64,000 nucleotides of DNA from Pelagomonas calceolata (taxonomy: Eukaryota): assembly GCA_918797485.1 (NCBI GenBank), contig CAKKNE010000003.1, positions 2,666,001 through 2,730,000 on the forward strand, written 5' to 3'. Of this stretch, positions 28,041-52,362 are shown in pieces. How positions within the stretch are numbered: the stretch's first letter is position 1; the number at the start of each line of letters is the position of its first letter. The position numbers and the translations under genes were made by a program. Under the pieces are notes generated by a model. The model was not told the DNA's origin. It did no database searches and was given only the letters and a program-made list of their open reading frames with translations.

Positions 28041-29381
28041 ATGATGATGGACGACAGCGACGACGAGTTCGTCCCCGACGACGACGTGCCCATGCGCCAG
28101 GCGAAGCCGCGGCCCGCCCCCAAAAAGAAGCCCGCGGCCGCCCCAAAAGGAAGGAAGAAGAAGGACCTCCCGAAGCTGACGCTCGGCCGCATCACGAAGA
28201 TCGGCGGCAGCGCCCCGCCGCCCGTCCCGCCCCCAAAGCCGAAGGCGAAGGCGCGCGCCGCCAAAGCGGAACCGCCGCGAGCCCCCGCGACCCTCAAGGA
28301 GATCTACCCCCACTGCGTCACCACCGAAAACACGAACAAGCGCTTCTTCAAAGAATGTACACATTTCGAGGGCCACCACCGTTTGACTGTGTCCTGCGTC
28401 GCGACGTTCGACAACCCCGCGACGCACACCCCATTGGTCGTCACGGGATCCGATGATGGCTTGGTGCTGGTCTGGGAGCCGCGCAACGGCCAGTGCATCG
28501 TCGTGCTGGCTGGGCACCGGGGCTGGGTGCGGTGCTTGTGTACGTACCTCGACCCGCACCACGGCGCGGCGTACGGCGGATTTCCCAGGATCGCGTCCGG
28601 CTCCTTCGACAAGAGCGTGAAGATCTGGGATCCCCTCGTGGGCGGCGCCCCGATCTACACGATTGACTTGCCGGCGATGGCTACTGGACTACTTGTATAT
28701 GTCTACGACAAGCAGGCCTATTTATGTCTGGCGACGGGCGGCCGCAACGAGGGCGAGACGACGCTGCGGATACGGACCATGTCCAAGGAGGCGGTCATCG
28801 GCCCGCCGAAGCCCAATGCACCACCTCCTCCGAAAAACACGACGACGATGCTCACCGGACACACGGACATGGTCTACGGCATGGCGACGTTCCACGACCG
28901 CGGCAGGCCCCGGTTGGTGACGGGGTCGCACGACAACCTCGTCAAGGTCTGGGACTTCCTGACGGGGAAAGAACTCTTGACGTTGCGGGGCCACGTCGAG
29001 GGCGTCAACTGCGTCGCCGCGGCCCAGAACGGCAATAAGCCGCTCGTGGCGTCGGGCGCCTACGACTGCAGCGTCGGGGTGTGGGACCCCATCAAAGGCG
29101 GCGGGCCCCTGCTCGTGCTGATGAACCCGGGGGCCGTCGTGACGGCCGTGGCCTTTTTCGCGTGCCCGAAGACGGGCAAGTGCCTGCTGGCCTCGGGCCA
29201 GTCGGACCGGACGCTGCGCGTCTGGGACGCGTTGAAAGGAGGCGACTACCTGCAGCAGGACGTCCTGCCCGACAAGATCCGGGCCATCGCGCCGTCGTTC
29301 GACGGCGTCCACCTGGCCGTGTCGCTCGGGATGATGTACGAGCCTGAAAGAGCTGCGGTAGGCTGTTGGCTAAGCGCGTGA
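28041..29381 (+). CDS. WD40-repeat protein
   Basis: Multiple GH...(S/T)GSxD..VKxWD repeats after a Lys/Pro-rich N-terminus. Confidence 0.9.
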   Translation: MMMDDSDDEFVPDDDVPMRQAKPRPAPKKKPAAAPKGRKKKDLPKLTLGRITKIGGSAPPPVPPPKPKAKARAAKAEPPRAPATLKEIYPHCVTTENTNKRFFKECTHFEGHHRLTVSCVATFDNPATHTPLVVTGSDDGLVLVWEPRNGQCIVVLAGHRGWVRCLCTYLDPHHGAAYGGFPRIASGSFDKSVKIWDPLVGGAPIYTIDLPAMATGLLVYVYDKQAYLCLATGGRNEGETTLRIRTMSKEAVIGPPKPNAPPPPKNTTTMLTGHTDMVYGMATFHDRGRPRLVTGSHDNLVKVWDFLTGKELLTLRGHVEGVNCVAAAQNGNKPLVASGAYDCSVGVWDPIKGGGPLLVLMNPGAVVTAVAFFACPKTGKCLLASGQSDRTLRVWDALKGGDYLQQDVLPDKIRAIAPSFDGVHLAVSLGMMYEPERAAVGCWLSA

Positions 29382-46004: not shown

Positions 46005-47216
46005 TCAGGTGGAGATCTCCGCGTATGGCCGCCGCCGCGTCTTGCCGCAGCAGCACTGCGGGCACAGCTGCCGGGCGACCCGATGCAGCGCCGGCGCCGC
46101 CATGGACAGCACCAACGCAGCCACGAACATGCCGACGACCGCGAGGCCGACGGCCGTCGTGTGCGCATCTAATGCCTCCGAGAGCGCCACGAGCGGCCCG
46201 GCGACGCGCGGCGGCAGGAACGGGGCCACGAGCCCCAAGCCAACGATGCTCCCAATCGCGAGCGACGCCGCGGCCGACGCCGCCGTGAGTAAGGCACCAA
46301 ACAGTAAAGCGCCCGCGGCGTCGCCGTCGTTGCCCTTCGCGAAGGTGAAGAGCACCAGCAACCCGTCGCACGTGTCGACCAAGGCCATGCCCGACGTGAA
46401 TAAGGCGGGCAGGAGCATGACCAGGGGCGCGGGGACATCTTTCGGCCCCACCGCCGCTAAGGCAAGTAAACCAACTTCAGAGGCCGTCTCGAAGCCCAAC
46501 CCAAACAGCACGCCCACGAAGTACATCTTCCAGGCCGCGTCGACCGATGCCAAAAGCCGCTTGCAGCAGCCGCACCGCGCGAACAGCCCGCCCGTCACCT
46601 CAACCCTTACTTGCTCGCCCTCATCAATCAACTCGGCGTTGTGGTTGTGGTGGTGCTCGCGCTGTTGTTTGTTCGCGGCGCGGCGCCACGCTCGAAATTG
46701 CGGGCCCACGGTCGCGAGGTTGAACGCCCCGATCAGCGTCAAAGTAACGGACGAAAACACGGCGCTCACGACGGCGCCCGTGCTCGCGACGGCGTCGACG
46801 CGCGACCTGATGAGGGACGAGCCGGTGGCCACGATGCCGCACAGCAGCAAAACCATTGTGCTGTGGCCGAGGCTGAACCAGAGGCCGACCAGAGCAGCCG
46901 GTTTTCCGGAGTAGGCCAGCTTCCGCGCCACGTTGTCGATGGCGGCGATGTGGTCACAGTCGACGCCGTGTCTCAACCCAAAACCGAGCGCGAGGAGGCC
47001 CGGGGAGACTAGAGCTGGATAACGCCCCCCGATCGCGAGCAGCGACGCGACCAGGACGACGTTCGCCAGCACAATCACCACAAGAGTCCCGCGCACGGCG
47101 AGCGTCGCGCAGGGCGACGTGTTCATCGCGTGGGGCGTCGCGGGCGCGTCCGGCGTGCTGCCGTAGCCGCCGGTCTCGACGAGCTCCAGCGCGCGGGGCT
47201 TTGGGTCGGGCGCCAT
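46005..47216 (-). CDS. High-affinity nickel/cobalt transporter (NiCoT, HoxN/NixA family)
   Basis: GLRHGVDCDHIAAIDN, FSLGHST, LFGLGFETASE and GMALVDTCDG signatures. Confidence 0.93.
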   Translation of the reverse strand: MAPDPKPRALELVETGGYGSTPDAPATPHAMNTSPCATLAVRGTLVVIVLANVVLVASLLAIGGRYPALVSPGLLALGFGLRHGVDCDHIAAIDNVARKLAYSGKPAALVGLWFSLGHSTMVLLLCGIVATGSSLIRSRVDAVASTGAVVSAVFSSVTLTLIGAFNLATVGPQFRAWRRAANKQQREHHHNHNAELIDEGEQVRVEVTGGLFARCGCCKRLLASVDAAWKMYFVGVLFGLGFETASEVGLLALAAVGPKDVPAPLVMLLPALFTSGMALVDTCDGLLVLFTFAKGNDGDAAGALLFGALLTAASAAASLAIGSIVGLGLVAPFLPPRVAGPLVALSEALDAHTTAVGLAVVGMFVAALVLSMAAPALHRVARQLCPQCCCGKTRRRPYAEIST

Positions 47217-47654: not shown

Positions 47655-48290
47655 ATGATGATGCCAGCAGCCCTACGCGTCGCAGCCCTCTGCGCGAGCG
47701 CGCATGCGTTGCAAATGACGGGCCGGCGGCGCTGCCTCCACGGCCTCGGCGGCGCAGCATTGATGAAGACGCTGGCGCCGCGCCGCGCGGGCGCCGAGGC
47801 GGCGCCGACGCCCGACGAACTTAAAAAACTCACGCTCGGCTACCAGCGCATGCAGACCCTTTTAAAAGATTGGCAGAAGATCACGGGCGGCTCCTGCGGC
47901 AACGCCCAGCTCTCGAAGGAGAAGGCCCAGGTCGTGGCCACGAACGGCGGCGCCTTGTGCGACGCGTCTCCTTTAGTGATTCAGGAGTACATTGGATACA
48001 AGTCGATCAACGACCCGCTCTACCGGAGCGAGAAGCTCATGGTCCGCGCCGCGCCCCTCCTCAAGAACCCCGACGACCTCGACCAGTACCTCGAGGCCGT
48101 GAATTTGTGGGGCCAGAAGATCCAGATGTCGTCGCTGAACGCCTACACATCGGCCTGGGGCGAGGCGAACCCGAACGGGTCGAAAGCGCAAGTCGCGGCC
48201 TACATGCAAGAAGCAAAATTCGACGTCGAGGAGTCCGCGGACCTGCTGAAGCGGATTTTGGTGATGCTTGGCTTGCCGCTTACTGCCTAA
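47655..48290 (+). CDS. Putative thylakoid-lumen protein
   Basis: Signal peptide (ASAHA-LQ), twin-Arg RRR, hydrophobic stretch and AGA cleavage site; mature part IQEYIGYKSINDPL...AYTSAWGEANP. Confidence 0.75.
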   Translation: MMMPAALRVAALCASAHALQMTGRRRCLHGLGGAALMKTLAPRRAGAEAAPTPDELKKLTLGYQRMQTLLKDWQKITGGSCGNAQLSKEKAQVVATNGGALCDASPLVIQEYIGYKSINDPLYRSEKLMVRAAPLLKNPDDLDQYLEAVNLWGQKIQMSSLNAYTSAWGEANPNGSKAQVAAYMQEAKFDVEESADLLKRILVMLGLPLTA

Positions 48291-48350
48291 ATCTAGTCTT
48301 GTGTATTTAGTTCTTTAACTTTCTACACAGTGAGTCACACAACCCGACGC

Positions 48351-48415
48351 GTGTTCGTGGGATCAGGTCCGCGCGCCAAGTAAGCGCGCGCACCGTCATA
48401 TATTCACGACGACAC
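48351..48415 (-). promoter_or_regulatory. SECIS-like element (eukaryotic type I geometry, non-canonical apical loop)
   Basis: Minus-strand RNA: GUGUCGUCGUG AAUAU AUGAC GGUGCGCGCGC UUACUUG GCGCGCGGACC UGAU CC CACGAACAC. It has the AUGA/GA quartet, an ~11-bp helix II and a helix I. Confidence 0.75.
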
Positions 48416-49048
48416 GAGTCGCACCCGGTACGGCCCGCGGACCTTTTTCACATCAACAACCGAACCCTTCTGAGTGACGACGACGCGGCCGCGCCCCACC
48501 AGGTCGCGCACCGCGGCGTGCGAGGCCGGCATCCACGACCGCCAATCACACGCCGCAGTAGCAAGCCGCCGCGGCGCCTCCGACGGTCAGCACGTCTTGC
48601 CCGCGCCGCGCGCCGCGAGGATCCGGAGCGTCTCCGTCGCGAGCTCGGTCTGAGTCGGCGCCTGGCGGGAGCGCTTCGCCGGCGGCGCCGCCTTGTCGTC
48701 AGCGCGCGAACGCTTGCCCGGCGCGGGCAGTTCGCGAAGCACACAATCGGCCGAGACCCGGCCGTCCGCGTCGAAGACGACTCCTTCGGATTCCAACAGC
48801 GCCCGCTTCCGCCGCACCGCAGGAGCGGCCGCGCCCCACTCGCCGCTGAAGCCGCCGAGGCGCCGGTCCGACGCGATCACTCGCTGTCAGGGCACTCTCG
48901 TCTCGGCGGGACAGTTCTTGCGCATCACAGCGCCGACGGACCGCGCACAGCCGCCCGCTACTGCAGCCACGGCTCCATACGTCGTCACCTTGCCCGCGGG
49001 CACGGCGCGCACGACAGCGTGCACCTTGGACTCGAAGGCTGTCGGCAT
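48404..49048 (-). CDS. Candidate selenoprotein: MGMT/ATL alkyltransferase domain plus DUF3253-like domain, 214 aa, Sec at residues 54 and 154
   Basis: Reading from ATG 49048 through TGA 48887-48889 and TGA 48587-48589 gives VPAGKVTTYG..ARSVG..RKN..VP*QRVI..LGGF..KRALLESEG, then RGAGKTC*PSE..DWR..M..VTQKG..VD..RGPYRVRL, ending at TGA 48404-48406. A SECIS-like hairpin follows. Confidence 0.85.
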
Positions 49049-49583
49049 CCTCTCACGTTGCTACGCGTCGACGACGCAAATGCGTCGCGGCTTTGAGAGA
49101 TGCCGACACTGCTGCTGCTCTGCAGCCTCTGCAGCCTGTGCAGGACTGTGCAATCGCGCCGCAAGGACACAGATGTCAAATGCACGCGCAGCGCAGCGAT
49201 GCAGTCGCCAACTGGCGGTACCGTGCCTTTTGGAACGGCAGTCAGAGGTTTGCCAGCTTTTTGCTGCCAGAGATGGCCTCCTTGTGACTCCAGGCACTGC
49301 GGTAGAGTGGCCCAAATGGATGCACGGCGCGAAACACAGCCGGTCCGAACGCCGGAAAGACTCCTCGCGCCGGAAAGCCGTTTTAAGTGTGTTTGCTACG
49401 CTAGGTGAGTTATTTTTTGGTAAACAGCCGGGCCCGAACCAGCCAAAAGCGCTGCAAGCAGTAGCCGGGCTTGCTGTGCTAACGCGTCGAAGCTACGGGC
49501 GGCCACAGGCCACACGGCTGCCGGAGCAACGCTTCGGACCAGGGGGACGCGAAACCTAAGGCCACAGCGCACCGCGCGGCGCG

Positions 49584-50995: not shown

Positions 50996-52362
50996 TTATG
51001 ACACCCCCTCCGCGATGTCCGCCGCGCTCGTTCCGGCCGCGAAGCCGCTGCACCAGCAGTGCATGAAGTTGAAGCCGCCCGTCACGCCGTCGACGTCGAC
51101 CAGCTCGCCGCAGAAGTGGAGGCCCGGCACGCTCTTGGACTCGTAGGTCTTGAAATTGATCTCCTTGAGGCGCACGCCGCCCGCGGTTACGAATTCCTCC
51201 TTGTTCGTATCTTTCCCGTCGAAGGGTAATTCCAGAGCGGAGCAGGCCGCCGCGACGGCGTCGAGCTCCCGCGCGGACCTGTGTGGGAATCAAATTCATC
51301 TGCTCGCTGGCGTGGAGGTCGACGAAGGTCGCTGGTTGATTTCCACACAGGCGCGGACGCGTCGCCCCACCGGCAGCCGTCGCGGACGTTCGCGTGGGCC
51401 ACGAGGCGCGCCCAGAGCCGCTTCGGGAGCTGCGAAAAGGGCCGCGTCGCACCGGCGACCGTCGCGCCGGCGTGCTTTTTTTTATGGGAATCGAGCGTCG
51501 AGCGCACGGCGCCCGGCGACGCGTCCGGCAACAGATCCGCGACGAGCGTGCCCTTGTAGCCGCAGTCCTGCAGCTCCCGCGCCTTGAACGCCGAGAGCCG
51601 CAGCGCCGCAGGCCCCGAGAGGCCGCGGTGCGTCACGAGCAGCGGGCCCCGCGTCGGCGGCGGCGGTTTCTTCTTCGCGCCTTTCAATTCGACGCGCGCG
51701 TCCGGCACGGACAGGCCCGCGAGGCCCTCGAGGACCGGCGACTTGACGCGGAACGAAAACAGCGACGGGCAGGGCTTCACGGGCTCGTGGCCGAGCGCCT
51801 TGGCCAGCGCGTAGCCCCCTGGTGCGGAACCGGTGGCTAAGACCACCGCGGCCGCATCGTAGGCGTCGTCGCCCGTTTTGACGGCGAAACCGTCGCCCGC
51901 CACATCAATGGTCGTCGCCGCGGCGCCGCCCTTGAATAAAACGCCGGCTTTGTGAGCAGCGTTCCGCAGCGCGTCGGCCACGGTCTGCGAGTCGTCCGTC
52001 ACGGGGAAGACTCGACCGTCCGCCTCCGTCTTGAGCTCCACTCCCTCGGCCTCGAACCAGCGCCTCATATCATCGGGACCGAACAGCGACGTGAACGGCC
52101 CGCGGATCTCGCGGCGCCCGCGCGGGTAGCGCTCGACGATGTCCGTGACGGCCATCGTCGGGTCGTGAATGACATTACATCGGCCGCCGCCGCTCGCGAG
52201 CACCTTTTTGAGCGGTTTCTGCGTCGCCTCGACGAGGATCGTCTCCGCGCCGCGCCGCGCTGCGGTAATAGCGGCGAAGAAGCCGCTGGCACCACCACCA
52301 ACGACGACGACGCGGCCGGCGCGGACGGACGCCGCCATCGCGATGAGCAATACGCGGCGCAT
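50996..52362 (-). CDS. HI0933/BaiN-family flavoprotein, 2 exons (52362-51359, 51278-50996)
   Basis: VVGGGASG, KVLASGGGRCN, GRVFP and THRGLSGPA motifs. After removing 51279-51358 the frame continues EFVTAGGV...GELVDVDGVTGGFNF...SG to TAA at 50996-50998. Confidence 0.93.
51279..51350 (-). mobile_element. Introner-like non-autonomous DNA transposon (family A), 72 bp
   Basis: 8-bp TSD GCGCGGAC (51271-51278 and 51351-51358); 15-bp TIR CTGTGTGG(G/A)AATCAA with 1 mismatch. On the minus strand the TSD supplies GT and the TIR supplies CAG. Confidence 0.92.

Follow-up and report, generated by a model that had tools for sequence, protein, structure and literature searches.

A candidate non-canonical SECIS hairpin without apical adenines at the end of a predicted two-selenocysteine MGMT-DUF3253 fusion gene in Pelagomonas calceolata

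The apical AA/G motif (or CC) of the eukaryotic SECIS has been described as essential (PMC2761289, PMC13059024, PMC2375036, PMC8659212), and a helix II of 10–12 bp is said to be needed for high SECIS activity (PMC8659212). The apical AA/G motif is also described as having no known partner (PMC2761289, PMC8659212), and mutation of the apical AA is reported to leave the recruitment of eEFSec unaffected (PMC8659212). The minimum distance between a UGA and the SECIS is given as 51–111 nt (PMC3753652), and in Lokiarchaeota one SECIS may, according to the available part of the report, serve two genes (PMC4989117). Selenoproteins of the MGMT type have already been predicted in algae (PMC7539508) and are also reported in prokaryotes (PMC7435645). 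Among the titles and abstract openings of the literature searched, we found none on a eukaryotic SECIS without the apical motif; the Aureococcus papers and the supplement of PMC7539508 lie outside that set and may already contain the fusion or the element described below. The same search returned nothing on CUPSE selenoproteins (by title), Pelagomonas selenoproteins, a SECIS with a GNRA loop or atypical protist SECIS, and no paper on DUF3253.

The locus described here lies in a 64,000-nt stretch of the P. calceolata genome (hereafter the window) and comprises a gene with in-frame TGA codons at positions 54 and 154, a third TGA at codon 215 and a hairpin that begins within its last codons (Table 1). 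The gene very probably encodes a two-selenocysteine (Sec) fusion protein, and the hairpin is probably a functional non-canonical SECIS that serves it. The ATG is at 49048. A profile search of the protein, run with Cys written at both TGA sites, identified the MGMT DNA-binding domain (E 3.9e-21, 75.1 bits against a cut-off of 27), for which TIGR00589 also scored above its cut-off, and DUF3253 (E 8.7e-22, 77.6 bits against a cut-off of 22.1).

Table 1. Features of the fusion gene, its hairpin and the convergent neighbour (window coordinates).
Feature	Position	Strand	Remarks
CDS, MGMT-DUF3253 fusion, 214 codons and TGA stop	48404..49048	-	predicted Sec54 and Sec154; no intron seen
MGMT DNA-binding domain PF01035, aa 5-90	48779..49036	-	PUQRV replacing PCHRV
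In-frame TGA 1 (U54), alkyl-acceptor Cys position	48887..48889	-	TGA in 15/15 covering orthologous loci
DUF3253 winged-helix domain PF11625, aa 135-211, motif CUPSE	48416..48646	-	
In-frame TGA 2 (U154), invariant Cys of DUF3253	48587..48589	-	TGA in 17/17 orthologous loci, in frame in 16
Third TGA, true stop, within the 5' strand of helix I	48404..48406	-	TAG in L014; divergent read-through frames
Whole SECIS-like hairpin	48345..48421	-	overlaps last five codons and stop
Helix I, 5' strand (coding)	48405..48421	-	
Core 5' side, AUGAC	48395..48399	-	invariant in 16/16 complete loci
Helix II, 12 pairs including a G.G mismatch; 5-nt loop at 48382-48378	48366..48394	-	no AA
Core 3' side, UGAU	48362..48365	-	UGA invariant in 16/16; last base U in 15, C in L014
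Helix I, 3' strand (non-coding, conserved)	48345..48359	-	
Approximate transcript	48320..49250	-	5' ends 49247-49252; 3' end about 48320-48340
Convergent neighbour gene, no Pfam match	47655..48290	+	reads end about 48296-48313

A metagenome scan yielded 54 loci, 17 of which are close orthologues with 81–93% amino-acid identity and mostly conserved synteny. Both TGAs are kept in every orthologous locus that covers them (Table 1). The one locus out of frame at U154, L016, is frameshifted between the linker and U154 and retains the TGA letters and the hairpin; the shift reflects an assembly error or a broken allele, probably the former. The codon alignment of the orthologue DNA showed no drift to TGG or TGY at either site, unlike the Cys codons 34, 46 and 102, which alternate between TGC and TGT, and the three Trp codons of the gene are TGG in 13/13 sequences. 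Codon statistics were calculated for the window and 12 loci (13 sequences), with the near-duplicates L002 and L007 and the partial loci L015–L017 excluded. The resulting pN/pS ratios (0.12 and 0.10 before and after U54, 0.51 in the linker, and 0.29 and 0.24 before and after U154, respectively) indicate that the codons past each TGA are under purifying selection. At the third TGA, by contrast with these two, the reading frame of L014 stops at a TAG immediately ahead of it, and the read-through frames of other loci diverge a few codons past it; hence the third TGA is a true stop, and a C-terminal Sec at this codon is ruled out. An earlier reading made from the letters of the window alone (the sequence-only reading) had proposed two recoded TGAs upstream of a terminating third, and the selection past both sites together with the TAG of L014 supports this. 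Genome-wide reassignment of UGA was rejected, since TGA is an ordinary stop that terminates 11 of the 30 long ORFs of the window; these ORFs contain 197 TGG and 262 TGY codons among 14,605 codons.

U54 aligns with the cysteine of the PCHR motif of solved alkyltransferases, and residues Y25, R37, N45 and E88 of the fusion protein align with the archaeal Ogt 4zyg at positions that we take to be those of the DNA-binding Tyr, the Arg finger, the Asn and the Glu of MGMT/Ogt. The active-site motif itself reads PUQR instead of PCHR in each of the 15 loci that cover it, the Cys codon being TGA and His being replaced by Gln; among 165 homologous proteins, PCHR[VI] occurs in 138, PCQRV in one and PW in none. 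Alkyltransferase-like proteins (ATLs) carry Trp at the acceptor position instead of Cys and lack the N-terminal MGMT domain, and it could be argued from them that leaky or reassigned decoding inserts Trp or Cys at the UGAs, that the first domain is an ATL damage sensor (PWQR) and that the hairpin is no SECIS. The fusion protein is also without an N-terminal MGMT domain, and distant metagenomic loci of the alkyltransferase type carry Trp (PWQR or PWHR) in 14 of 16 cases; because six of the 16 read PWQR with the same Gln, Trp at U54 alone is conceivable. However, codon 54 is TGA and never TGG, near homologues carry Cys at this position, and Trp154 would displace the invariant Cys of the second domain. 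Moreover, no orthologue has drifted to a Trp or Cys codon, TGG and TGY are in normal use in a genome that employs TGA as a stop, and the same TGA in L018, a locus of an unrelated eukaryote described below, comes with a canonical SECIS. Decoding as Trp or Cys is thus very improbable. In MGMT chemistry the usual His acts as a general base. With Sec at position 54, the MGMT domain would move alkyl groups from O6-alkylguanine onto Sec54, and we infer that a selenol, if ionised at neutral pH, could dispense with the general base that Gln replaces; this idea is weakened by the single PCQRV protein and by the Gln found in ATLs.

Four stranded polyA runs from one sample delimit a minus-strand transcript that starts at about 49250 and has a 5' UTR of about 200 nt. 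Neither joints (introns) nor edited letters at the TGAs were observed in four RNA runs, in which the depth over U154 is low: the fusion gene is covered 7–45x at its 5' end and 0–4x around U154. The depth at 48460–48830 is 5–10 times lower than at 49050–49250, and transcripts may decay or end early past the first UGA; the 72–76% GC of the low-depth stretch can explain the dip. At the other end, one stranded polyA run gives 6–7x over 48342–48456 and 2x over 48319–48341, and a 943-nt contig from a different run, whose RNA origin is presumed in its record, ends at 48330. The reads include the hairpin and end 5–25 nt past it, which argues against polyadenylation upstream of the hairpin, one of the observations that the sequence-only reading had named as refuting its proposal. 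The read ends of the convergent neighbour limit the space for the 3' UTR of the fusion gene, and from the read and contig ends and the stop of the neighbour at 48290 the 3' UTR is estimated at about 65–85 nt, filled by the hairpin.

The surroundings of the gene offered some further observations. About 185 nt without reads (49250–49435) separate the divergent starts at 49247–49252 (minus strand) and 49435–49442 (plus strand), and this gap is likely a bidirectional promoter. Genes for a NicO high-affinity nickel transporter and a HI0933-like flavoprotein lie at 46005–47216 and 51187–52362, both on the minus strand. A tRNA-Cys predicted by ARAGORN at 29011–29103 (minus strand) is antisense within a WD40 gene (28041–29381, plus strand) and was set aside as likely false. 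A second selenoprotein gene was sought in the window and none was convincing, with a filter that is insensitive since it also missed U54.

The AUGAC (48399–48395) and UGAU (48365–48362) segments of the hairpin lie exactly where they had been placed from the sequence, and the G·G mismatch is present. The 29 nt that separate the two segments fold into 3 bp, the G·G mismatch and 8 bp; the top pair of helix II is a U·G, which leaves a pyrimidine-rich 5-nt loop, UACUU, and the 11 bp with a 7-nt loop given previously are the same structure. The lower helix proposed to close the hairpin is present and runs outward by about five more pairs, to 48421/48345. The 77-nt hairpin has a folding energy of -38.3 kcal/mol (z -3.57), which one of 200 shuffles equalled; a version of 85 nt has z -2.58. 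The AUGA is located 488 and 188 nt downstream of the TGAs at 48889–48887 and 48589–48587, distances that exceed the published minimum of 51–111 nt, whereas the third TGA (48406–48404), 4 nt ahead of the AUGA and within the lower helix, is closer than that minimum. A pattern devised post hoc (RUGAN, 11–14 bp with at most one mismatch, NGAN) and applied to both strands of the window matched once, at the hairpin, versus 0.37 matches per shuffled window (59 of 200 shuffled windows held at least one); the motif alone is thus not rare in 64 kb. Scaled to a 3' UTR of about 90 nt on the right strand, the chance of the motif is about 3e-4. Conservation among orthologues is stronger evidence for the hairpin than the rarity of its motif.

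The sequence-only reading held that default SECIS scans could overlook the element, and two scans did miss it: a pattern scan across 48301–49260 found no canonical SECIS of the AA or CC type, and Rfam gave no SECIS match at E up to 10 for the window region and five loci, a search in which the canonical element of L018 itself reached only E 3.8. Model R1 matched nothing beyond the hairpins of the orthologues, on both strands, and three weak hits in the window (E 0.44–3.2). The locus might be a pseudogene or several short independent reading frames, and the hairpin a chance GC repeat, as the fall in read depth and the frequency of the relaxed motif in shuffled windows could suggest, but the purifying selection flanking both TGAs largely refutes this explanation; in addition, the same TGAs occur in all orthologues, one contig runs through the gene, and its GC content can account for the low depth. 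We consider it scarcely credible.

The complete hairpin was recovered from 16 of the 17 orthologous loci, the sequence of L004 being cut off, and the alignment comprises 13 distinct hairpins, with L001, L002, L013 and L007 left out as identical to others. The core and the bases next to it, twelve in all (AUGACGG and CCUGA), do not vary in the 13 distinct sequences; of 102 fourfold sites compared in 10 of them, by contrast, just 26 are unchanged. The conservation of the core quartet, which the sequence-only reading had made a test of its proposal, extends to every complete locus. In nine loci the identity to the window is 0.68–0.91 over the hairpin versus 0.45–0.65 in the next 40 nt. The long helix II, of 11–13 pairs, is kept in 14 of 16 loci. 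Every alignment cell of helix II pairs, with U-A, U-G and C-G at one position, and 98.2% of the cells of helix I are paired over 14 pairs, although the conservation of its 5' half is not independent because it is coding sequence; slid controls pair only 23–54%. By contrast, covariation in the orthologous 3' UTRs, suggested as a further check, is not significant: 302 of 500 shuffles scored as high, and no pair changed on both sides relative to the commonest pair. RNAalifold, in which kink-turns are unscored, favours an alternative 6-bp hairpin that pairs the AUGA with the stop codon. This alternative is the minimum-energy fold in three of the 13 sequences and is broken in three, whereas the core is broken in none. 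At the apex, the loops of the orthologues are 3–8 nt long and pyrimidine-rich. The AA that was noted as missing from the window is absent from 16/16 complete loci, four of which are devoid of A between the core halves, and a single CC occurs in L005, where it is paired. In L005, L006, L012, L015, L016 and L017, 300–1000 nt unmatched in the window separate the hairpin from the convergent gene (window 48305–48326), with syntenic flanks.

The length of 11–12 bp initially given for helix II holds for the window but is not universal. In L008 (1030–1087) and L014 (3634–3690), the core encloses a perfect 5-bp stem capped by GCGA, an identical 14-nt stem-loop in both, and both loci have intact frames with the two TGAs kept. 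The DNA of L014 is 81% identical to the window, and the two loci are non-sisters in the coding tree, which groups them with different partners (supports of 0.92 and 0.97). Scans for a canonical SECIS came up empty both within 700 nt of L014 and in L008, where 134 nt of sequence were available. One may suppose that only the long hairpin is a SECIS, that the missing AA is the sole functional variation and that the 5-bp forms represent dead or nearly dead alleles, as only two of 16 loci have them, each on a single metagenomic contig, and as the hairpin of L014 is no more stable than its shuffles (z -1.2). However, the intact frames, the recurrence of the same GNRA-type stem-loop in non-sister loci and the lack of a canonical replacement in the flanking sequence argue against this supposition, which is unlikely, and we lean towards the 5-bp form being functional.

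It is also conceivable that the protein does contain two Sec residues and that the hairpin is instead a kink-turn or 3'-end stability element, recoding being directed by another signal in the coding sequence or specific to the lineage. The apex does not follow the canonical consensus and withstands a reduction to 5 bp, covariation is not significant, and fourfold sites are less diverged after U154 (pS 0.23 vs 0.40), a possible sign of an RNA-level constraint on the coding region. On the other hand, the invariant bases are exactly those of the SECIS core, in the place where a SECIS is expected, the canonical helix length is kept in all but the two short forms, the transcript has no other SECIS candidate, and most loci have diverged more in the 5' UTR. 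A stability element is therefore an improbable explanation of the hairpin, and the invariant core, the variable apex and the position of the hairpin, which fills the 3' UTR, make it likely a working SECIS. The features that a SECIS would be expected to show are nevertheless incomplete: the apical AA/G, called essential in the available part of PMC2761289, is absent from every complete locus, and the 5-bp helix II of L008 and L014 is far shorter than the 10–12 bp given for high activity (PMC8659212).

The second TGA falls in a domain for which Sec looks like a new assignment. A structure model of the DUF3253 domain (pLDDT 93.9) is a winged helix that matches the structure 2NS0 with Z 13.9 (rmsd 1.6 over 79 residues, 39% identity), the next matches being Z-alpha and MarR-type domains at Z 9.0 and below. 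In the model U154 sits in the turn just ahead of the second helix; it aligns with a Cys of 2NS0, and the same position is Cys in 20/20 bacterial-type DUF3253 loci. A stand-alone DUF3253 gene of an unrelated eukaryote with 49% identity and unrelated flanks, L018 (465–972 and 1074–1122, plus strand), has a TGA in the motif CUPSEAPR, a likely intron and, at the N terminus, a patch of basic residues similar to a nuclear signal. About 290 nt downstream it is followed by a canonical type II SECIS (AUGAC, a 10–12-nt arm, AAAA, a mini-stem and UGAA), which received just 15.9 bits from Rfam and whose fold energy minimisation fails to recover. DUF3253 looks like an unreported selenoprotein family, and its invariant Cys is probably reactive, as marked by the Sec at this position.

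Database proteins point in the same direction. Six predicted proteins from three distant clusters (P0053/P0192/P0193, P0057/P0194 and P0168) end exactly one residue before U154, and five of the six have Cys at the MGMT site. The only named homologue of the fusion, a Chrysophaeum taylorii model (P0089), contains both domains but is missing 25 aa at U54 and 14 aa at U154; judged from the predicted protein, these gaps fit false introns that skip the TGA codons. The Chrysophaeum model and the many truncated proteins suggest that such genes are mis-modelled. P0042 has Cys at 154, probably an error because its three other odd substitutions are all explicable by A-to-C changes. In P0047, an all-Cys fusion, the domains occur in reverse order (DUF3253 then MGMT), an arrangement that suggests independent fusion events. 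Fusions in both orders tie the uncharacterised DUF3253 to DNA alkylation repair.

Bacterial DUF3253 genes were also surveyed. They are fused to the Cys-rich DUF2256 in L019, L024, L026, L027, L036, L038, L039, L042, L050 and L053, and in L045 the gene preceding DUF3253 encodes a photolyase FAD-binding domain. This was the single photolyase-type neighbour in a scan of 66 of the 67 ORFs from 19 loci, so that the neighbourhoods lend little functional support. One bacterial DUF3253 (L068, 241–488, minus strand; G001:C103) has a TGA at the same Cys, immediately followed by a hairpin (z -1.4), and its genome contains selA and selB matches that exceed the cut-off. It was the one DUF3253 among 30 pattern hits in that search, and no other DUF3253 with a TGA was found among 400 genomes of the phylum and 40 relatives, 17 and 12 others of which had a match; as a singleton it may be an error and is not counted as support. 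Viral contigs yielded no relative, and four pattern hits were not homologous.

In the most probable model, the conserved AUGA/GA core is predicted to form a kink-turn that binds SBP2, and this one hairpin would recode both upstream UGAs without an apical AA, the inserted residue being presumably Sec. The third UGA would terminate translation because a ribosome at that codon has unwound helix I and reaches the core 4 nt on. The product would be a DNA-repair protein in which Sec154, in the DUF3253 winged helix, is a second reactive residue. As a preferred guess, offered by analogy, Sec154 might serve as a second alkyl acceptor. E. coli Ada has two alkyl-acceptor cysteines, and its O6-alkylguanine acceptor domain is linked to another DNA-binding domain with a reactive residue of its own; the likeness goes no further, as the DUF3253 winged helix has no detected similarity to the N-terminal domain of Ada. 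It is tempting to speculate that the Sec machinery of the alga uses a bare kink-turn core for which a 5-bp GNRA stem suffices, that the element serves a two-Sec repair protein and that DUF3253 is both a new Sec family and a second alkyl acceptor; taken as a whole, this combination is a tentative proposal that we would put at somewhat less than even. If it is true, standard SECIS searches overlook elements of this kind and algal selenoproteomes are undercounted: SECISearch-type patterns are described as requiring AA or CC (PMC2375036), and genes like the present one would therefore be missed or mis-modelled. The orthologues also constitute a natural series under selection, with A-free stems of 12 pairs and stems of 5 bp, that offers ready test cases for the role of the apex and the minimal size of a SECIS.

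Among known systems, the hairpin is closest to the eukaryotic type I SECIS (SECIS_1, RF00031), with which it shares a site in the 3' UTR, the RUGAN/NGAN core, a helix I under an internal loop, a helix II of 12 pairs, the lack of a mini-stem and recoded UGAs more than 111 nt away. It differs from type I in its pyrimidine-rich loops of 3–8 nt without AA/G or CC, in the lack of an Rfam match, in the variants with a 5-bp helix II and in a helix I that overlaps the last codons and the stop, and it is filed as a non-canonical variant rather than a canonical member because the apical AA/G or CC is absent. The CC-type SECIS of SelM, SelO and TrxR3 is, like the present hairpin, an exception to the apical AA; however, as described in the available part of PMC2761289, it has a conserved CC instead, whereas nothing is conserved at the apex here. 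The Lokiarchaeota elements share the AUGA..GA core, a possible overlap with the coding sequence or stop and a shorter stem (9 bp), and thus offer a precedent both for one element serving several UGAs and for the overlap with a stop codon; as far as the available text of PMC4989117 shows, they are archaeal and keep their apical adenines, which are gone in this eukaryotic host. Within its second domain, the protein has the winged-helix fold and the invariant Cys-Pro-Ser motif of 2NS0 (Rhodococcus RHA04536), but TGA replaces the Cys codon and MGMT is the partner, whereas bacterial DUF3253 has Cys and is often fused to DUF2256. As for the first domain, a Sec is likewise predicted in the algal MGMT selenoprotein of PMC7539508, the available part of which mentions no DUF3253 fusion, second Sec or odd SECIS.
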